IMG/VR virus record: IMGVR_UViG_3300031673_000059
Coordinates: 1 to 54,320 of that record
Direction: 5' to 3' (one strand)
Source of the DNA: a virus
Length of the DNA stretch: 54,320 nucleotides
A program made the translations under genes and the position numbers. Under the pieces are notes generated by a model. The model was given only the letters and a program-made list of their open reading frames with translations. It had not been told where the DNA came from and made no database searches. Shown here piece after piece: positions 2,232 through 35,778 of the stretch (the first letter of the stretch is position 1; each line of letters opens with the position of its first letter).

Positions 2232-5200
2232 TGTCGAGGTAGAAAAGCATTCCGGCTCGGTTGTCGAGTGGTTGAAGAGGGGGCGGCCAGAAGGGGTTGG
2301 AGAGTCCCTGTCTGACGAGGGGTCCTGCGAACCGGAGGAATGCTGAGTCGCTGCCCCCCTCAGCGACGACTCGGTCCATGTGTCGCTGGTGGTTTTCGAG
2401 GAGCATGCCTGTAAGAGCTCTTGTGAAACTGTCGTCGACTCCTTCGAGGAGGGGGGCCCATTTCTGGGTGTAGCGGTTGACGATGCTCTGAAACTCTGGT
2501 GCCTCAGCAGCGGCACCTCCAGGCCGCTCTTGGAGTAACTCCTGCCTCAACCTCGTCATGGTAGCGAGGATCTCTGATGGTTGAATCGGCGGTGTCGCAG
2601 ACCCAGTTGAGTCCTCGGACGACGCGACCGTCGTCCACACCTCGCTCGGGGGTGCCGTCGTCGATGGTGGCGCAGAAGACGTTGAGTCCGAGTAACTCGG
2701 GTCCGGGAGCGCCGCCGACGATCCGGACCCACTCAGAAAATCCGAGTCACCTCGCTCTCCAGGCTGACCTGGGCCCGAGCCAGCAACGATGTTCACCGGC
2801 TCGGATGATCCTGGAGTCGAAGGCCTCTCCATGCTGGTAGGACTGCCAGTTACCTCCTCGGACGGTGCAGGATCCGAACCCCATCTGCTCGATGGCTCGG
2901 TCCATGACGGATCGTAGGTAGATTCGACCGCTGGTGTTCCGGGGGGCGATTCCGAAGGTTCCCTCGACGATGTGTGTGAGTGGTCTTGGGTTGACCATGA
3001 TGGCCGCCGCTTCTGCTCTTGTGATGTTTGGGCCGTAGAGGGCCCTAACCCAAAAGGGACGTCATCGGGCCCTCCATGCCGCCCGTGGACCGGCCGTAAA
3101 GTCGGGGAGTTCGGGATCGAGCCACCAGGAATCGGCCCGATCCCACCCCTGCCAGTCTCCGCCTCTGAGCGTGTAGGCGTCGATCCCGATGTAGTGCGCG
3201 ACTTCGGGCGAGACTCGCATCCAGTTGGCTGGGTTTCTGACGGTGAGCTCGTAGATTCGTTGGGCCGCCGCCGCGACCCTGGCGATAAAGGGAGGTCACC
3301 TTGCTCTCCAGGCGCACCTGAGTCCGACGTCTCTGACGTCGTTTCCGGCACCTCGCTGCCGTCTGGCGACGAAGCCCTCGTCCTCTCCTCTGAGGACCTT
3401 AGGTCGATCCTCGGCGGTGATTGCGATGTAGGGGGCGTAGATGAACCCGGTGTCAAGGACTGTGTCGCCCTTGTAGCCGAAGAGGAACCCCGTCCTGTCT
3501 CCGTCCTGGGACTGGTCAACATGGATGAGGCGGCCGCCGTCTTGGGATGAGAATGGGGGCTCTGGGTGGACCGTCCACCCAGGCCTGATCCGAAACCCGA
3601 GTCACCTCGCTCTCCAGGCCCCTCGGAGTCCGAGTCCGTGGTCGAGGTCCCAGCCCCAGACTCTGCCGGTGTCGAGGCCTGGGTCGGCGAGTTCGAGCCA
3701 GCAGATCCCCCGGACCCTGATCCGGGGCTGGAAGGGTCCGAGCCGACCGGCGTTGCGTCCTCCGCGTAGGGGCCCAACCCCATCCCGAGGTCGGAGTAAG
3801 CGTCCATGTGCTCGTAGTCAGCGTACCGGTCGAGCAGCTGCCCGGAAGGAGACATGAGACTGTCGCTCAAGGACCCCGAGCTGGTCTCGCCATCCTGGAG
3901 ATCCCTCTGGGGGTCGTCCGACATTCCAACTGATGGACTTGAGGATGTATGGGATACCGTCCTGGTAGAAGATGCCTCCGAGGTAGCAGCGTCCGAGTTC
4001 GCCGAGCTCGATCTCGCTGCATGGGTTGACCCCGAAGGCTCCGTAGGGTCCGAGCTAATGAACCCTGGCTCTCCAGGCTGTCCTGACGCCTCCTCGGTCA
4101 ATGTTGTGGCCCCTGAAGGAGGCGCCTCGCTCCCAATCCCGGGGGGACTCATCCCAGGAGTAGCTTCGGATGAGGAATCGATGATGTTGCATGCGCTCTC
4201 GGACGGAGAGGCCTGCGTAGGGTCCGAGCTAGGCTCTCCAGGCTGGTCGGAGTCCTGCGTCCTGGGCCCCTCCGACTGCTCGTCCGATGTTGCTGACGGG
4301 GAACGGATAGGTCCCGCCGTTGAGATGATATGTAGGAGGGAATCCGTAGTCAGGAACGGGGTTGATGTAGGGTCCGGGCGTTGCTCGCCGTTAGCGATGT
4401 AGCCATTCTCGGGCAGGTCCTCGACCCCTCGAACCCACTGGCACCTGGTCCATTCGAAGACGTTCCCGCAGTTGTCGTGGAGCCCCCAGTTGTTCGGATC
4501 CTTCAGGCCAACTGCCTTGTGCCCGTCCTCAAACTCGCCGCCGAACCAGGCGATCTTCTTTAGGTCCTCATCCGTGTCGCCGTTGGGGTAGCGCGTAGTC
4601 GCTCCGGCCTTAGTCGCGTATTCCCACATCGCCTCAGAGGGGAGCTGAAAGCCGACCCGCTCACCCTTCTCGTTCCAGAGCCAGGCCTGGTAGGCCGCCT
4701 CGACCTCTGCTGAGAACACCAGCGCTTGGTTCTGGACAGGCAGAGGCATGATGTCCGTGTTGACCTGTTGCTCCCACTCTCTCCACGTCAGCGTGAAGGT
4801 CTGATCTGAGTGTGTGAACTTGCAGTTGGTCAACCGTGCAAAGTCCAGCCGGTTGATGAAGTCCTCGACCTCACGGCACCGATCCCAGGAGACGCTCTCA
4901 ACAGGGTGCTCCCCCCACCTGCGCCCATCAGAGTCCTTCAACTCCATGCGGGTCGCAGGCCCGAACGGCGCGTCACCCATGCGGGTGACGTTAAGCCCCT
5001 CCTCGACCATTTCGGTCGTAGGGAAGTGACTCGGGAACTCACGTGTGACGCGGTACCACTCACGCCCGGTCCACGGGTACTTCGCCATCAGGAATGGCTC
5101 GTCGAAGGTCCGCTTGACCTGTTGCTGGGCCGTCTCATCATCAGGGTCCGCAGTGGGACCCATCATGAACTCACCCGAAGGGATCAGAACGAAGATCATC

Positions 5201-16692: not shown

Positions 16693-17058
16693 ATGAAGAC
16701 CGGCGCGAGGAAGGCAGTCGTCCGTAAGCTACGGAAGATGGTGAACCGGCATATCGGCAACATGGTCGATGAGAAGTTCGAAATGGGCTGCCTGGCGGCA
16801 AGTCTGTTCCCGGACTGGGTTGAGAGCGACTACTCCACCTTTGATCTTTACCTGTTCCACGGCTGTGGAATCCCATGGAACATCGCCAGTCGCCTGGAGA
16901 CGATGGCTCACACCTACTACGAGATTCCATCTCTTCAGATTTGGATGCAGGTGGGATACACAAGAGCCGCCCAAGCAGCCGGACAAGGCCGAGAGGGCCA
17001 AATCCGAGCGCTGCTTGAAAGCGGCTCTAATGTGCTAGACGTGATGACGTTGATCTAG
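16693..17058 (+). CDS. hypothetical protein; C-terminal NVLDVMTLI
   Basis: ORF track, 121 aa. Confidence 0.65.
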   Translation: MKTGARKAVVRKLRKMVNRHIGNMVDEKFEMGCLAASLFPDWVESDYSTFDLYLFHGCGIPWNIASRLETMAHTYYEIPSLQIWMQVGYTRAAQAAGQGREGQIRALLESGSNVLDVMTLI

Positions 17059-18140
17059 ACGGCGATCGGCGCTTCGGTGCAGACCGTGGTGAGGATCCTG
17101 GTGCAGACCCGGTAGGGGTCGCAGTTGGCTCCGGGTCGCCGATCTTCGATGTAGCCGTAGCCCTGCTGGGCTACCTGGGCGGGGATGCGGATCGAGCAGC
17201 CGCGATCACTGTCACCGACCTTGAACGTGTTGATGTCGCACGTCTCGTGCTTGCCGGTCAGGCGCTTCTCCAGGCCGAAGCCGTAGTCTGCGATGTGCTC
17301 GGCGTGGACCTCCGACATCGCCTTGACCGCCGCCGCGATAGCCGACTTGCCGGTGCCTGGGTCTCGCATCTCCTTCGTGGAGAAGTTTGTGTGAGCGCCC
17401 GCACCGTTCCAGTCGCCTTGCTCAGGCTTGCAGTTGAGGGTGGCCGAGATGCCGTAGTCCTCGCCGATCCGGAACAGGAGCCAACGCGCAAAGATCAGGT
17501 GATCTGCGACTGTGAGAGGGTCGGCTGACTCGCCCGGGAACCCAGGACGATGACCGATCTGGAACTCCCACTGACCCAGCATGACTTCGGCATTGATGCC
17601 GTAGATCATCAGCCCGGCCCTCATGCAGGCGCTGAGGTGATCCTCGACCAGCTTGCGGCCCGCAACCTCGTCAGCTCCGACGCCGCAGTAGTAGGGTCCC
17701 TGAGCGCGCTGCGGGAGTCCCTTCTCCGGCCATCCAAGGGGGCGGCCAGTGTCTAGGTTGTAGAGCGTGTACTCCTGCTCGAAGCCGAACCAGGGATCGT
17801 GGTCCTCAGCGACCGACATGATGTCCCGCAGACGGCTGCGAGTGTTGGTCTTGTGCGGCATGTCGTCTGGAGTGGTGACCTCGCACAGGACCAGGAAGTT
17901 GGCGCCGCCGCGAATCGGGTCGTTGACGACGCGAACCGGGGTGAGCACCTGGTCTGAGTTGGACGTCCCCGCCTGATTGGTCGACGAGCCGTCGAAACCC
18001 CAGACCGGAAAGGACGTGTAGTCGATGACGCCCTTCTGATCATCGGGTAGATAGACCACACGGGTCTTCGACCGAAGGTTCTGGACAGGGATGTCGGCGG
18101 ATCCGCCGTCCATCCAGATGTATTCAGCTCGTACGTGCAT
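17055..18140 (-). CDS. glnII: glutamine synthetase type II (eukaryote-like GSII)
   Basis: 361 aa. Blocks are AEYIWMDGG...LRSKTRVV, FGFEQEYTL, YYCGVGA, INAEVMLGQWEFQIG, GAGAHTNFS, RLTGKHET and SIRIP...YIEDRRPGANCDPY. Confidence 0.92.
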   Translation of the reverse strand: MHVRAEYIWMDGGSADIPVQNLRSKTRVVYLPDDQKGVIDYTSFPVWGFDGSSTNQAGTSNSDQVLTPVRVVNDPIRGGANFLVLCEVTTPDDMPHKTNTRSRLRDIMSVAEDHDPWFGFEQEYTLYNLDTGRPLGWPEKGLPQRAQGPYYCGVGADEVAGRKLVEDHLSACMRAGLMIYGINAEVMLGQWEFQIGHRPGFPGESADPLTVADHLIFARWLLFRIGEDYGISATLNCKPEQGDWNGAGAHTNFSTKEMRDPGTGKSAIAAAVKAMSEVHAEHIADYGFGLEKRLTGKHETCDINTFKVGDSDRGCSIRIPAQVAQQGYGYIEDRRPGANCDPYRVCTRILTTVCTEAPIAV

Positions 18141-18429: not shown

Positions 18430-19611
18430 CTAGTCTATTGATCCGACGATCCGATCGAGCACACCGACCATGTCGAGCATTGTCCCTAGGTATTCGATCG
18501 CCTTGTCTTTCCCCCAGGCGTGGAGCAGACACTCCCTCTCCTTGGGGCCGCCCTTGCAGGTTACCCCGTCCTTCTCGCCGAGCGCCTTGACTACGCTCGA
18601 ATCGAACGCCTCGTTGTTCTTCCTCTGCATCTTGATGTTGATGACCCTCTTCCGAGGGCCGATGGTGATGGTGTAGTCGCCGTAGGCGATGGCGTACCAA
18701 GGCTCGTTTTTGAACTGGTCCTTGTAGTAGCCGTTGGGGAGCTCCGTCCTCGTCTTGTTGGCCAGTCCGACCGCCTCGAAGATCTCGTTGAAGAGCTTGG
18801 CGTGCCGGAGCTTGATCGGGTCGACCGGGACCTCGATTTCCTGACTCCGCCCTGCGTCCACCGCCTCCCAGGTCCACTCGCCGTCGACCTTGTTCTGGAT
18901 CCAGACGCTGACCTCATCGCCGGGAACCTGGGGAGGGATAGGGGACGCAGGGTGCCCAGTCTGGTACCAGGACTTCTTGCCGGCCGCCGCGTGGGCTTCG
19001 AGCGCGTCTAGGATCTCCTGGGAGTGTCTCTTTACCTCGTAGAGGGCGTTCTCGGCCATGTTCTTGAGAACTGCCATCCGGTCGATGGCGTCAGGGGCGT
19101 CCATCATGCCCCATTCCGAGCCCGGGTCTGACACCCGCCTCTTCCAGTTGGGCTCCCACTGACCGATGGTTTTCAGGAGGCCGAGGAGCAGAGGACCCTT
19201 CTTGGGCTCGGCTACCCCGCCATCGAGAAGCGGAAAGACCAGCATCCCGATCGGGCCTCCGGCTCCGAGTTCGGCCAGCCTAGCGACAGCAGTGTTCCGA
19301 TCTGCCTCAGGGGTCAAGGGGGTGACAAGCGCTCTGAGCTGAGAGACCTCTTCGTCGAAGGCGGCCTTGTTGGCCCGCCAGGTCTTGAGGACCGTGCCGT
19401 TGAACCAGTCGGCCACCCTCTCGGAGAGACCCTCGCCCGGCTTCCGCATGAGCATGAAGAGGTTCCCGCCGTCGGCGGCCATATGGACCCCGAACCGGTC
19501 GCAGCCCTTGCACTTGAAGTTGCTCTGCGACATCCCGCCGAAGGAACCACCGTGACCCTGCCACTTAGGCGCGGCGCAGATACAGGACGGTACGTTCTCT
19601 GGCAACGCCAT
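18430..19611 (-). CDS. hypothetical protein; C-terminal GVLDRIVGSID
   Basis: ORF track, 393 aa. TAATG overlap with the NADAR gene. Confidence 0.7.
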   Translation of the reverse strand: MALPENVPSCICAAPKWQGHGGSFGGMSQSNFKCKGCDRFGVHMAADGGNLFMLMRKPGEGLSERVADWFNGTVLKTWRANKAAFDEEVSQLRALVTPLTPEADRNTAVARLAELGAGGPIGMLVFPLLDGGVAEPKKGPLLLGLLKTIGQWEPNWKRRVSDPGSEWGMMDAPDAIDRMAVLKNMAENALYEVKRHSQEILDALEAHAAAGKKSWYQTGHPASPIPPQVPGDEVSVWIQNKVDGEWTWEAVDAGRSQEIEVPVDPIKLRHAKLFNEIFEAVGLANKTRTELPNGYYKDQFKNEPWYAIAYGDYTITIGPRKRVINIKMQRKNNEAFDSSVVKALGEKDGVTCKGGPKERECLLHAWGKDKAIEYLGTMLDMVGVLDRIVGSID

Positions 19612-31196: not shown

Positions 31197-31505
31197 ATGT
31201 CCACCGAGACGATCACCGAAACCGATACGACCACCAGGCTCATCCCGCCCTGGCACGTGATACTCCTCAACGACGACGACCACAGCTTCGAGTATGTCAT
31301 CGCCATGCTCTACGCGGTCTTCGGGTTTCCCCCTACCAAGGGGTTTAAGCACGCCGAGGAGGTCGACGCGACCGGTCGGACCATCTTGATTACTACCAGT
31401 CGTGAGCACGCCGAGCTGAAGCAGGAACAGTGTCACGCCTTCGGCCCCGACCCCCTAGTCCCCAGGTGCAAGGGATCCATGACCTGCATCATTGAGCCAG
31501 CATGA
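31197..31505 (+). CDS. clpS: ClpS, ATP-dependent Clp protease adaptor (N-degron recognin)
   Basis: PPWHVILLNDDDHSFEYVIAMLYAVFGF....GFKHAEEVDATGRTILITTSREHAELK. Confidence 0.9.
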   Translation: MSTETITETDTTTRLIPPWHVILLNDDDHSFEYVIAMLYAVFGFPPTKGFKHAEEVDATGRTILITTSREHAELKQEQCHAFGPDPLVPRCKGSMTCIIEPA

Positions 31506-31985: not shown

Positions 31986-32488
31986 TGGGAATGAGCTACA
32001 GGACCTACGTGGGGCCCTATCTCTGGTGCAGTGTTCGGACCCGACCGGCGACAAAGGAGATCAGGCTCTGCGCGCGGTCGGAGTGCCGGTTCTTCCGAGA
32101 GAGCAGTCCCATGCCCAGCGACAGCAACTTCTGCCCCCAATGCGGCACACCGGCCGTAGACAAGATCGTCGAGGTCGAGGGACAGGTCGAAGAGATCCTC
32201 AGCAGCTGCGATCTCATGGAGGCCACCAACGAGAATCTAGTTCCGGTCAACAACAACTACGCGGACGCCGGGGTCCACCTGTTCGTCTCGAACCTCGCCA
32301 AGGCTCCGGGCCTTCGACTGGAGAGGGGAGGAGATCTCGGCGAGATCATGCAGTATGACGGTGTGATCATTGATCAAGAGCTCACGGCCTTCAGGGAGCG
32401 GCACGCCGATGATCTGGAGATCGTCTACGAGCACTACGGCGAGGATCGTGTTGAGGTCCGGTGGGGCGTGTTGGCCTCTTACGGGTGA
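31985..32488 (+). CDS. hypothetical protein with zinc ribbon (CPQCG)
   Basis: The start is ATG 31985 (TGATG overlap). Confidence 0.65.
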   Translation: MGMSYRTYVGPYLWCSVRTRPATKEIRLCARSECRFFRESSPMPSDSNFCPQCGTPAVDKIVEVEGQVEEILSSCDLMEATNENLVPVNNNYADAGVHLFVSNLAKAPGLRLERGGDLGEIMQYDGVIIDQELTAFRERHADDLEIVYEHYGEDRVEVRWGVLASYG

Positions 32489-32808
32489 AAAAGACGAAGA
32501 TCGTGAACTGTCTACGCGAAGAGTTCGATGTGTATATCGGACGAGCGGGCAAGGGTCACGACGGAACCTTCGGTAATCCGTTCAGGCGCGGCCCGGACGA
32601 CCCCCCAGGCTCGACGCTCATCAAGTTCGAGGAGTATTTCCTCAAGCGCGTCGAGGAGGACCAGGAGTTCCGAGAGAAGGTTCTCGCCCTAAAGGGTAAG
32701 AGGTTAGGATGCTTCTGTCCGCCTAAGAGGGCGTGCCACGGTCGCACCTATGTCAGGTGGCTGGACGGCGAACCCGAGCCAAAGGCGGAGCAGCTGGAGT
32801 TCTTCTGA
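32485..32808 (+). CDS. DUF4326 domain protein
   Basis: FDVYIGRAGKG....FGNPF...EEYFLKRV...LKGKRLGCFCPPKRACHG. The start is GTG 32485 (GTGA overlap). Confidence 0.75.
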   Translation: MKKTKIVNCLREEFDVYIGRAGKGHDGTFGNPFRRGPDDPPGSTLIKFEEYFLKRVEEDQEFREKVLALKGKRLGCFCPPKRACHGRTYVRWLDGEPEPKAEQLEFF

Positions 32809-33146: not shown

Positions 33147-33485
33147 ATGAGAGAGCCCCCGTACGACAAGATCGAGCTGATAGACCTCAAGCCGTGCCCG
33201 TTTTGCGGTCATACGCAGCGGGGAGTGGAGCCGAACACTAGGGTCCGGATCATGTTCGTCGGTATGGCCGTCTACGTACAGTGTGGGCGCTGTCGTGCGA
33301 TAGGGTCTAGTGTAGGGATACCGGGCCACATTGATGAGCTTGGTGCGTTTATGGATATGGTTGCCGACGTAGACATCTTCGGCCTCCCGTCAAACCCTCG
33401 GGCATTCAACGACTGTGAACTCGATCTCTGGATGTCGCAGCTCGCCGCCAAGTTCTGGAACAACCGAAAGCCCCAGCGAGCGTGA
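33147..33485 (+). CDS. lar: Lar-family restriction alleviation protein
   Basis: LKPCPFCGH...YVQCGRCRAIG...AAKFWNNR is the Lar-family pattern as I recall it. Confidence 0.65.
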   Translation: MREPPYDKIELIDLKPCPFCGHTQRGVEPNTRVRIMFVGMAVYVQCGRCRAIGSSVGIPGHIDELGAFMDMVADVDIFGLPSNPRAFNDCELDLWMSQLAAKFWNNRKPQRA

Positions 33486-33703
33486 TGGACCACCACGCAC
33501 TGCTCTATTCCCACGCTGTCGTCCAGGCCGCCCGGGTCGGTCTGCCTCTGCACTGGGAGGAAGACATCATGACCTTCACCGCCCCGGGGCATGACGACTG
33601 GATCATCGGTTGGTGCCCCAACACCTTCAATCAGCTGCGGATCAAGGTGATGAGGTTTCACCAACCTGAGGACGCCTACCCGGACATCAAGCGGGAGTGT
33701 TGA
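33482..33703 (+). CDS. hypothetical protein (ends at in-frame TGA 33701; see extension)
   Basis: ORF track, 73 aa. ATGA-type overlap. Confidence 0.6.
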   Translation: MMDHHALLYSHAVVQAARVGLPLHWEEDIMTFTAPGHDDWIIGWCPNTFNQLRIKVMRFHQPEDAYPDIKREC

Positions 33704-33844
33704 ACCTACGACTGGGAGGTGGGCGCCAGGCTGGTTGCCCAACTGATCGCGTCCAAGGACCCACTAGGGCTGGTCGAGTCGTGGGAGACGCCGGACAACT
33801 GCGAGCTGCCAGGATATGGCCGGGTGCGGATCGACAACGTCTAG
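33704..33844 (+). other. 46 in-frame coding-like codons after TGA 33701 (readthrough / selenocysteine / sequencing error candidate)
   Basis: TYDWEVGARLVAQLIASKDPLGLVESWETPDNCELPGYGRVRIDNV*. Most third positions are G/C, as in genes here. There is no usable start codon. It ends in a 4-nt overlap (ctag) with the stop of the convergent capsid gene. Confidence 0.4.
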
Positions 33845-34779
33845 TAGGGCGTTCCGGCCAACGTGATCAGAGATGCGAACTCCGGCCTCACGAGTGTGAT
33901 TTTGTGCCGGGTGCGGATCGCGCGCCGAAGAGTCTTGTCGGCCGGATCTACGAAGTTCGGTGTGATCTCGACCATGGTGTAAGGACTGTAGATGACGCAC
34001 GTATCCATTACGCTGTCGTCTGCCTGATACCAGGCCAGCAGCTTCCCTACGGGGAAGAGGGGATCCAGGTAGACGCCCCTGCCGTCAACCTCGCCGATTT
34101 TGGCGATGCCGTCTGCCTCTTGGACGTCAAAGCCAAGCTGGGCCAGCATCGCCGCGTTGCCAATGACCCTGTTTGCCGGGTTCCGCTGAGACCCCCGATG
34201 GACGATGTGGGCCGCCCTGTCCAGAGCTTCTTTGAGATCACCGCCGGCGGCCAACTCGATCTTGTTGTTGTCCAGGACGCCGTTCAGGATCGTTCCTACG
34301 ATCTCCCGAGCCACCTCGGTCAGGAGTGCGTCGATGTTCAGAGCCCCCTCTTCGTTGACGTCGGTGTGTGCCTTGCAGCGCCTCGACTCCGCTCGGATCT
34401 CTTGAGGGATGATGTCCAGCACGACGGAAGGCACCTTGACCTTCCTCTCGACGCCGTCTTGAATCAGGGTCGCCTCCTCCATCTCCCCGAAGCGCGGCTT
34501 GTAGTAGTAGACGATCCCGATCGGCCCAGTCATCGGCTGCACCGCGCAGAGGTCCGGGAGCACGTGGGTCCGGACCGAGGCCTTGAGGTTATCGAAGAGA
34601 TCCTCCGTCCACGAGCCGAGGACCAATGCCCGGGTCTCCTCGACGAGACGCTGAAGGTGTCTGCTCTGGTTCTCGCAGACCATGGCAGCGATGTTCGACC
34701 TGTAGCCGTCCTCTAGGCCCCACTTGGTGCGGAGCTTCTCTAGATAGCTCTCGTCCGGCATACCATCAAGCTGAGTCAT
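33841..34779 (-). CDS. T4 gp23/gp24-family capsid-fold protein, compact paralog A
   Basis: LRTKWGLEDGY..MVCENQSRH, DLCAVQPMTGPIGIVYYYK, ANRVIGNAAML and GVYLDPLFP..LAWY....MDTCVIYSPY match the remembered T4 gp23 blocks (KWKPLLEG..IFENQ, VQPMNSPTGQVF, YRVYIDQY..GYKGP..DAGIYYAPY). The start is ATG 34779 (AGGAGG 4 nt upstream). Confidence 0.85.
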   Translation of the reverse strand: MTQLDGMPDESYLEKLRTKWGLEDGYRSNIAAMVCENQSRHLQRLVEETRALVLGSWTEDLFDNLKASVRTHVLPDLCAVQPMTGPIGIVYYYKPRFGEMEEATLIQDGVERKVKVPSVVLDIIPQEIRAESRRCKAHTDVNEEGALNIDALLTEVAREIVGTILNGVLDNNKIELAAGGDLKEALDRAAHIVHRGSQRNPANRVIGNAAMLAQLGFDVQEADGIAKIGEVDGRGVYLDPLFPVGKLLAWYQADDSVMDTCVIYSPYTMVEITPNFVDPADKTLRRAIRTRHKITLVRPEFASLITLAGTPY

Positions 34780-34824
34780 AGTTCCTCCTGATGCGGAGGG
34801 TACCACAACTACATCAGATTTACA

Positions 34825-35778
34825 TCAGACAATCTGCGCCAACCGCTCCAGGACGTTGACCTTAACCACCTGGATGTGGCTCGGATGGGCCACATGGATG
34901 TTGTGGTTCAGGTAGATCGCGAAGTTGTGGCGGCCGTCCATCGGATCGAGCGGGTAGCAGAAGGGCGAGTAGACGACCGGCGTGTCTACGATGCTTGGTC
35001 CCATGTACCAGAGCATTACTTCACCGTCAGGGAACAGCGGATCCAGGTAGACGTGCATCCTCTGCTTGTAGACGCCTACCTTCTTCACCAGGCCGGTATC
35101 AGTCGTGTCCCACTCGTCCGGATCCTCCGGCGAGAAAAGCTCCAACATCTTCTCATTGCCGATCACGTGATTGGCCGGGCCCCGCATGCAGCGCTTGTGG
35201 ACCATCTGCGAGGCGCGAAGGATATCAGTGTCGAACGCGGTGTAGGTCGACTCCAACACATTGCCGGCGGCCGATCCCGCGCCGTGCATGACGCCCAACA
35301 CCTCGCGGATGGACGCCAGCATGACCGAGTCGAACACGCTGTCGATGAGCGCGAAGTTTCCTGGGTAGATCCTGACGCCGAGTCGCCTGATGGAGGCTTG
35401 GACGTTGACCGTCTGCAGGTTCAACGTCATCGTCGGGATCGATGTGCTCCCAGGAGTAGTGGGTCCGGCCGGCGTGGTGATGTTGGTTTGGCCGTAGAAG
35501 CCGATGGTGTCTGATGGCCTCCGTAGGGGCTGGACCGACACCATGTCGATCAGGGGGCAGTGCACCCAGGCCTTCACGAGAGCTCGGTAGAACTTGTCCT
35601 TCCAGTTGTCGCCATAGGTCTCTTCCAGATCATCGGGGATCAGCGATGAGCAAAGGACGTTGGCCTGGTTCTCCAACAGTAGAGCGATGACGCCAGAGCG
35701 CTTGTGATGGCCGGGGAGGTAACCCTCCCACTTCTCGGTCAGAGCCTTGATGTGGTCGTTGTCCAACATGGTGGGCAT
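34825..35778 (-). CDS. T4 gp23/gp24-family capsid-fold protein, compact paralog B; C-terminal NVLERLAQIV
   Basis: TEKWEGYLPG..LLLENQANV, MVSVQPLRRPSDTIGFYG, ANHVIGNEKML and MHVYLDPLFPDGEVMLWYMGPSIVDTPVVYSPF. Confidence 0.85.
   Translation of the reverse strand: MPTMLDNDHIKALTEKWEGYLPGHHKRSGVIALLLENQANVLCSSLIPDDLEETYGDNWKDKFYRALVKAWVHCPLIDMVSVQPLRRPSDTIGFYGQTNITTPAGPTTPGSTSIPTMTLNLQTVNVQASIRRLGVRIYPGNFALIDSVFDSVMLASIREVLGVMHGAGSAAGNVLESTYTAFDTDILRASQMVHKRCMRGPANHVIGNEKMLELFSPEDPDEWDTTDTGLVKKVGVYKQRMHVYLDPLFPDGEVMLWYMGPSIVDTPVVYSPFCYPLDPMDGRHNFAIYLNHNIHVAHPSHIQVVKVNVLERLAQIV

Follow-up and report, generated by a model that had tools for sequence, protein, structure and literature searches.

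A conserved in-frame UGA with a 3′ SECIS-like stem-loop marks a candidate selenoprotein gene family in uncultured phages

We analysed a 54,320-nt stretch of DNA, positions 1-54,320 of the IMG/VR record IMGVR_UViG_3300031673_000059 (the window, whose coordinates are used throughout), which is a fragment of an uncultured phage with a larger genome and T4-like capsid genes. On its plus strand a small gene is interrupted by an in-frame TGA at 33701-33703. Comparison with related loci shows that translational recoding at this site is real and deeply conserved across a family of phage genes. Our favoured reading, held with modest confidence, is that the UGA is decoded as selenocysteine (Sec) and that the gene encodes a phage selenoprotein. 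On this reading 33485-33844 would be a single gene for one protein of 119 residues (120 if translation starts at the GTG at 33482), and a stem-loop within the open reading frame (ORF), just 3′ of the UGA, would serve as a bacterial-type selenocysteine insertion sequence (SECIS). The parts of the gene are the following.

33485 to 33700, plus strand: N-terminal coding part, 72 codons from the ATG at 33485, with an alternative start at GTG 33482
33701 to 33703, plus strand: recoded codon TGA, proposed to specify Sec or alternatively a leaky stop, with TGA at the homologous codon in 14 of 14 DNAs
33704 to 33841, plus strand: C-terminal extension, 46 codons in the same frame, TYDWEVGARLVAQLIASKDPLGLVESWETPDNCELPGYGRVRIDNV
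33709 to 33749, plus strand: SECIS-like stem-loop of 41 nt with two helices, from RNAalifold and single-sequence folds
33842 to 33844, plus strand: stop TAG of the extended product, sharing the palindrome ctag (33841-33844) with the stop of a capsid gene

As the initial annotation of the window described, the upstream ORF ends in ...PDIKREC-TGA and its frame then stays open to the TAG at 33842-33844. The N-terminal part closes with the conserved ...YPDIKREC, is identical over 33485-33700 to the gene-caller product P0001, and starts within the TGA of the upstream Lar-like gene (TGATG). At its other end the extended gene meets a convergent capsid gene of the Gp23 family (33841-34806, minus strand), whose own stop occupies 33841-33843. 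The 4-nt stop-stop overlap that had been pointed out is present at 33841-33844, and the same geometry occurs in the related loci L001, L004, L005, and L007. The G/C-rich third positions of the extension were also borne out, with a third-position G+C fraction (GC3) of 0.83. The excess of GC3 over the second-position fraction (GC3-GC2) is 0.39, which tops all post-stop extensions in the window that are not explained by a same-frame next gene. A stop-free run of 46 codons has a probability of about 0.2 at the composition of the window (60% G+C; an estimate from base composition), and many genes of the window have post-stop extensions that are as long or longer. Because the open extension alone is within chance, the case rests on comparison with relatives. 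No promoters or terminators were found around the recoded site.

Searching 5.8 billion proteins with the fused product gave eight proteins of 66-82 residues, all ending in ...YPDIKREC. A profile of the N-terminal part was also run on 1.84 billion representative proteins and added seven members of greater divergence, whose ends coincide with the last profile position; the eighth match was the window's own P0001. The database proteins of the family all stop exactly at the position of the TGA. The corresponding DNA set consists of the contigs of the close proteins, further metagenome loci, and five distant members (L013-L017), with independent assemblies drawn from JGI, ENA, NCBI, and Logan. All 14 distinct sequences, with the window counted among them and at least 11 independent datasets represented, have TGA as the homologous codon. 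Identity to the window protein is 65-80% for the close members and much lower for the five distant ones. In the close loci the frame continues after the TGA as TYDW(E/K)LGARLVAQL...DP..LV.SWETP.NCE.PGYGRVRIDN, and all five of L013-L017 likewise have the TGA and a recognisable in-frame extension; the peptide shared by the relatives as a whole is TYDW..G.RLVAQL..DP..LV.SWETP.NC..G.GRVRIDN. The spacing between TGA and extension is invariable, and the frame is that of the upstream ORF, in every one of the 14 sequences. We observed no sense codon at the TGA site among the ~20 family members recovered by N-terminal, full-length, and extension profile searches of up to 5.8 billion proteins, the full-length and extension profiles yielding truncated forms or fragments only; a look through the orthologues for Cys, Trp, or another sense codon, proposed at the outset, thus found none.

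Run on the 5.8 billion proteins, a profile of the extension picked up nothing but short ORF pieces that begin at internal Met or Val codons, among them P0020-P0023; a 37-aa gene called in L004 is likewise an internal-start piece of the extension. One of these, P0022 (75 aa), lies outside the window on an ENA contig of 541 nt and is peculiar in that its extension relative (MVSQLVESEDPLALVRSWETPANCRHPGDRVRLDN...) runs into a C-terminal stretch matching Pfam PF01597 (glycine-cleavage H protein); possible causes are gene fusion, chimeric assembly, and a neighbour gene read in frame. Searches of 50,697 phage records with blastn and tblastn and a full-length scan of GTDB genomes gave no relatives. 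Scans of IMG/VR gave no true relatives; their single match, L018 (IMGVR_UViG_2870654421_000003, 3001-3042), was rejected as a chance match of 14 residues (DPLGLVSSWRTP) inside an unrelated ORF.

The way in which the extension has diverged indicates that it is translated in the same frame as the upstream ORF, as part of one product. Across nine close orthologues its synonymous divergence (pS) is 0.62 and its nonsynonymous divergence (pN) 0.11, with synonymous sites saturated and a ratio of nonsynonymous to synonymous rates (dN/dS) of 0.09, compared with 0.16 for the N-terminal part. The other two sense frames have pN/pS >1 and 16-20 stops, whereas the extension frame is stop-free in every sequence. 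None of the three antisense frames is open throughout all sequences, and an antisense gene was rejected on this ground. Seven residues of the extension (P20, T29, P36, G37, R40, V41, and R42) are invariant, yet each is written with three or four different codons. The residues T-Y-D-W right after the TGA are invariant or nearly so, and they lie upstream of any candidate start. The initial annotation had denied the extension a start codon of its own. In the window this is not so, as GTG 33719, directly abutted by GGGAGG, opens a 41-aa ORF (33719-33844, plus strand) found in the window only. However, the codon at this position is CTG, ACG, TTG, or AAG in the relatives, so GTG 33719 is not a conserved start, and no other start codon after the TGA is conserved among them. 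Orthologues stopping at the TGA with non-conserved sequence beyond it, the pattern that had been named as speaking against recoding, were not seen; the downstream part is under the stronger constraint. Together, conservation of the extension and the frame tests rule out, or make very unlikely, an error in sequencing, a pseudogene, a gene on the antisense strand, and a downstream gene with its own start. The proposal that the TGA is recoded, whether by readthrough or as Sec, is supported by the conserved TGA and downstream frame in all 14 sequences.

The stem-loop suspected downstream of the TGA also proved to be real in the comparison: all 14 sequences have the hairpin of 33720-33741 in the corresponding place. 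With the U of UGA taken as nt 1, the lower helix pairs 33709-33715 with 33743-33749 (nt 9-15 with 43-49). In the window's upper helix, 33720-33724 are paired to 33737-33741 and 33726-33728 to 33732-33734; the family consensus for this helix pairs nt 21-27 with 33-39 and leaves an apical loop of nt 28-32. This loop (~33728-33732) reads A-GGC-U in the window and AGGUU in most relatives. Four nucleotides do not vary: C27 and G33, uppermost in the upper helix, and G29 and U32, within the apical loop. L013 and L014 have U-A in place of C-G at pair 26-34, by amino-acid changes on each side, and pairs 12-46 and 13-45 covary likewise. The sequences are mutually related, which applies to all statistics on the stem-loop. 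Paired cells make up 81.6% in the consensus register compared with 20-53% in slid registers, and double-sided changes occur at 6 pairs, a number that only 2 of 500 shuffles reached.

Codon choice near the UGA is constrained beyond the needs of the protein. Synonymous diversity at invariant four- and six-fold codons is 0.38 in codons +1 to +14 and 0.66 elsewhere (one-sided p=0.012), and pS is 0.41 in these codons and 0.72 elsewhere. The real sequences form 160 consensus pairs, and 2000 trials of synonymous recoding averaged 131.7 and did not exceed 144, in a test that is partly circular as the structure was derived in part from the same sequences; three of the five distant sequences, which were not used in deriving the lower helix, reach P<0.03 in it. 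Scanning the window and the related loci with a covariance model of the element turned up no further copy. Upstream of the TGA, a candidate fluoride riboswitch (RF01734) at 33637-33685 (plus strand), in ...RIKVMRFHQPEDAYPD, scored 25 bits against a gathering score of 34 and is missing the P3 stem. It was rejected as most likely a chance match, because it is absent from a whole-window search and from the 14 orthologous loci.

The published consensus of Zhang and Gladyshev for bacterial SECIS (bSECIS) elements has a loop of 3-9 nt, a stem of 4-16 bp, and a minimum free energy (MFE) of at most -7.5 kcal/mol (PMC13188914, Fig 2 legend), with G as one of the first two loop nucleotides, usually as G[G/U], and 16-37 nt between UGA and loop (PMC13188914). 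SECIS hairpins are also described as having stems of 6-8 bp and a conserved loop G ~20 nt past the UGA (PMC4605307). The phage element fits the published bSECIS model, with a loop of 3-5 nt that opens with a G before G or U, an upper stem of ~7 bp, and a spacing of 24-25 nt from the UGA; the SECIS check suggested for the stem-loop thus came out positive, by a model that is permissive in this genome. Across the 14 sequences the loops are (A)GGU(U), GGC, GUU, GGUCU, CGUGU, or CGGGU. In the local fold, 12 of 14 sequences have an MFE of -7.5 kcal/mol or lower, the exceptions being L013 (-6.9) and L017 (-5.3). The apical CC-AGGUU-GG (GCC-GGUCU-GG in L005) resembles the SECIS loops of fdhF and of Moorella.

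In its layout the phage gene is like bacterial selenoprotein genes, of which E. coli fdhF is the archetype: it has a conserved in-frame UGA after which the coding frame continues, an in-ORF stem-loop just 3′ of the UGA with an (N)G[G/U] loop, a 7-bp upper helix and a lower helix, and, in most family members, a Cys beside the UGA. Unlike them it is phage-borne and belongs to a family without relatives in Pfam, NCBIfam, PHROGs, or PDB, without a Cys homologue, and without a universal partner Cys; its Sec insertion and the binding of its hairpin by SelB are putative.

TGA is not reassigned in the window, where it is an ordinary stop, as had been annotated. Among the 85 heuristically called genes it ends 36, compared with 30 for TAG and 19 for TAA. 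The genes that it terminates include the upstream Lar-like gene, the gene for ClpS, the second capsid paralogue, and genes with full Pfam matches. An in-frame TGA is confined to one locus in the window. We found no tRNA genes in the window, and a whole-window Rfam search gave no match at gathering score.

Searches with the full-length protein and its profile gave no match in Pfam, PHROGs, NCBIfam, or PDB sequences. We predicted the structures of the two halves separately with AlphaFold2. The N-terminal half alone gave a poor model (predicted local distance difference test, pLDDT, 58), with a low-confidence beta-strand just before the C-U position. The extension alone is predicted to consist of helices only, with a helix at residues 4-16 (pLDDT 74-91). 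Sec would then sit between the predicted beta-strand (...IKRE-C/L) and the predicted helix, whose start lies three residues further on (W78 onward). A strand-loop-helix arrangement is the typical setting of a redox-active Cys or Sec, and the predicted strand-U-helix setting fits an active-site residue. The modelled setting therefore suggests that the gene, which lies in a cluster of early character, probably encodes a small redox-active or thiol-reactive protein.

The neighbourhood of the gene contains the following features.

31197 to 31505, plus strand: ClpS adaptor
32461 to 32808, plus strand: DUF4326 protein
33147 to 33485, plus strand: Lar-like restriction-alleviation zinc-ribbon protein
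33841 to 34806 and 34825 to 35778, minus strand: two Gp23-family capsid paralogues in tandem (321 and 317 aa)

The Lar-like, DUF4326, and ClpS genes lend the cluster an early, host-takeover character. Several of these neighbours recur in related contigs: L001 and L002 have ClpS, L002 and L003 have DUF4326, and L002 gives a faint Lar-like match as well; the convergent capsid gene also borders the recoded gene in most such contigs. The two capsid paralogues are presumably the major capsid and vertex proteins, as T4 gp23 and gp24. The upstream paralogue closes with a TGA, and the next gene follows 18 nt on in the same frame. The window also encodes a DEAD helicase, a HerA-like ATPase, a DHH phosphoesterase, and an ATP-dependent ligase. 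Its capsid protein is ~24% identical to those of the nearest cultured phages, and no DNA relative of the window was found among the 50,697 phage records. A glutamine-synthetase-like ORF of 361 aa (17055-18140, minus strand), with catalytic and beta-grasp domains, is an unusual auxiliary gene for a phage. Two further minus-strand ORFs, of 867 aa (51434-54037) and 393 aa (18430-19611), have no Pfam match at E≤0.001.

The ClpS protein suggests a host. It has 30 relatives in GTDB species representatives, nearly all from Planctomycetota, and the best of them (56-66% identity) are from metagenome-assembled genomes of Gemmataceae, suggesting by sequence similarity that the phage infects a planctomycete. 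Gemmata obscuriglobus and Isosphaera pallida are both reported to have full sets of Sec-insertion genes, and other planctomycetes to have selenoproteins (PMC4807772). As the nearest ClpS relatives are from Gemmataceae and Sec machinery is reported in the clade, it is plausible that the host is Sec-competent.

If the UGA is read as Sec, some ribosomes would insert Sec and reach the TAG at 33842, and others would terminate and release a 72-residue fragment; the phage would contribute only the mRNA signal. In favour of this reading are the strict specificity for UGA, the conserved element at SECIS spacing, its loop motif and compensatory changes, the added synonymous constraint after the UGA, the stronger constraint on the extension than on the N-terminal part, and the plausible Sec-competence of the host clade. 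In a fuller version, the family would be the first phage-encoded, Sec-only family without cellular relatives, its hosts probably Gemmataceae or other Planctomycetota, and its own SECIS would hijack host SelB and tRNA(Sec) for a small redox-active early protein. We lean towards this fuller version only slightly.

Several observations weigh against Sec. Nearly all known selenoprotein families have Cys homologues (PMC13188914), and searches of the 1.84 billion representatives and the 5.8 billion proteins gave no Cys-containing homologue of this one, leaving the family without a Cys/Sec pair in which a Cys homologue aligns with the UGA. The Cys before the TGA, which had been proposed to form a C-U pair, would do so in the window but is Leu in P0009, L013, L014, L015, and L016; because of these distant members the pair is not a feature of the family. 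No partner Cys is universal either (Cys107 is Ser in L015 and His in L017), and the sole universal ‘cysteine-like’ position of the family is the TGA itself. On the RNA side, no Rfam family matches the element, with the 14 orthologous loci included, and the pair-count test has the circularity noted. By free MFE the region does not outdo its synonymous recodings or its dinucleotide shuffles (z -0.42 against the latter), so stability alone fails to single out the hairpin. Of 300 random TGAs of the window, 36% pass the bSECIS model and 19% do so with a G[G/U] loop; because the model is this permissive here, the weight lies on conservation and covariation and not on passing it. We found no sel genes or tRNA(Sec) in the window, with no SelA, SelB, or SelD among the scanned ORFs of at least 250 aa, and the host assignment draws on a single gene, ClpS. 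Finally, Sec recoding is known from cells and two poxviruses, but a phage selenoprotein was not found in the literature searched (PMC8310308, PMC13188914), which lowers the prior for Sec.

The only viral selenoprotein genes listed in PMC8310308 are those of two poxviruses, MC066L of molluscum contagiosum virus (a GPx1 homologue) and a GPx4 homologue of fowlpox virus. The phage gene would be like these in being a virus-encoded UGA/Sec gene that leans wholly on the Sec machinery of its host, and the fowlpox SECIS, like the phage element, sits in the coding region 3′ of the UGA. However, the poxvirus genes belong to eukaryotic viruses, have eukaryotic-type SECIS elements, and are host-captured glutathione peroxidases with abundant cellular homologues, whereas the phage family has no cellular homologue and an element of bacterial type.

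Programmed readthrough of the UGA, of the type of the Qbeta A1 protein, is the main alternative, which we regard with some doubt. Release factor 2 (RF2) would stop most ribosomes to give the 72-residue protein, and a near-cognate tRNA, likeliest that for Trp, would give the 119-residue isoform; the stop would fix the ratio of two needed products, and the hairpin and the invariant A and C at +4 and +5 would tune its leakiness. A ratio-setting stop predicts the universal TGA with no sense-codon variants among ~20 members, a pattern that is unusual for selenoproteins. The lack of a universally conserved partner Cys also agrees with readthrough, as do the invariance of A4 and C5 after the UGA and the weak discrimination by SECIS criteria, which 19-36% of random TGAs pass. 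An invariant Thr codon explains A4 and C5 equally, however, and the conserved in-frame extension that goes with a leaky stop is present but does not separate readthrough from Sec. What readthrough leaves unaccounted for is the SECIS-like element: the hairpin, with its conserved loop G and U, its spacing of 24-25 nt, and its compensatory changes, agrees with the consensus for bacterial SECIS elements, and a 3′ stimulator of this kind is not an established feature of readthrough in bacteria. The extension is also more constrained than the N-terminal part, which fits a single full-length protein better than a minor isoform. Sec machinery is reported in the likely host clade (PMC4807772), and the mechanism of programmed readthrough has been called ‘remarkably unclear’ (PMC7026636). 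The phage gene is like Qbeta A1 in ending in UGA followed by A and in having an in-frame extension that gives a longer product, which in Qbeta is functional. The A1 protein of Qbeta is a bacteriophage precedent for UGA readthrough; Qbeta is a single-stranded RNA phage whose A1 extension of ~200 residues forms a minor capsid component, and readthrough there uses tRNA-Trp at a few per cent and is not known to require a conserved hairpin at SECIS spacing. The gene described here, unlike A1, is a small non-structural gene of a double-stranded DNA phage and has a conserved 3′ stem-loop.

Other explanations have little in their favour. General or late-infection suppression of TGA by a suppressor tRNA or an altered code, with the TGA as a timing switch, is improbable. 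The contig is part of a larger genome, and a tRNA cluster could therefore lie elsewhere, and stop-codon-recoded phages are documented (for example, PMC9523058). Like the phages that recode TAG to Gln or TGA to Trp, such as crAss-like phages, this one would read through an in-frame stop for a full-length product. However, recoded phages have many in-frame stops scattered mostly over late genes, and often suppressor tRNAs, whereas here TGA is a genuine stop that ends 36 of 85 called genes, including ones with full Pfam matches, and the window is without a tRNA. TGA is neither rare as a terminator nor in frame in many genes, as it would be if reassigned; one gene carries it, position-specific over deep divergence, and that gene lies among early-type small genes (ClpS, Lar-like, DUF4326) and not late ones. 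Two separate products, a 72-residue protein and the 46 codons translated by reinitiation or from a non-canonical start such as GTG 33719, are very improbable. The GTG of the window does follow GGGAGG, and some gene calls are pieces of the extension with an internal start (P0020-P0023; L004). Yet there is no spacer between GGGAGG and GTG, the GTG is not conserved, the nearly invariant T-Y-D-W lies upstream of the candidate starts, and the extension abuts the TGA in the upstream frame in 14 of 14 sequences with no variation in spacing. The probability that the TGA is an artefact of sequencing or assembly, or a sign of decay in which a recent nonsense mutation left the extension as a relic, is negligible at most: the error that the initial annotation had allowed for is refuted by the recurrence of this TGA, amid saturated synonymous divergence, across 14 distinct sequences and at least 11 independent assemblies, and a relic by the dN/dS of the extension.

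All gene callers truncated the family at the TGA and left a false ‘intergenic’ gap of 137 nt, which illustrates how annotation of viral metagenomes misses recoded genes. Whichever of the two leading readings holds, such a site is new for double-stranded DNA phages. If the UGA is instead read through, the family would be a rare conserved case in a double-stranded DNA phage, of interest to the recoding field. If Sec is inserted, it would be the first bacteriophage selenoprotein, and the gene would provide a compact natural module of SECIS and selenoprotein of ~360 nt. Dependence on host SelB and tRNA(Sec) would then be a new kind of host dependency, possibly a determinant of host range, and would tie the fitness of the phage to the supply of selenium.

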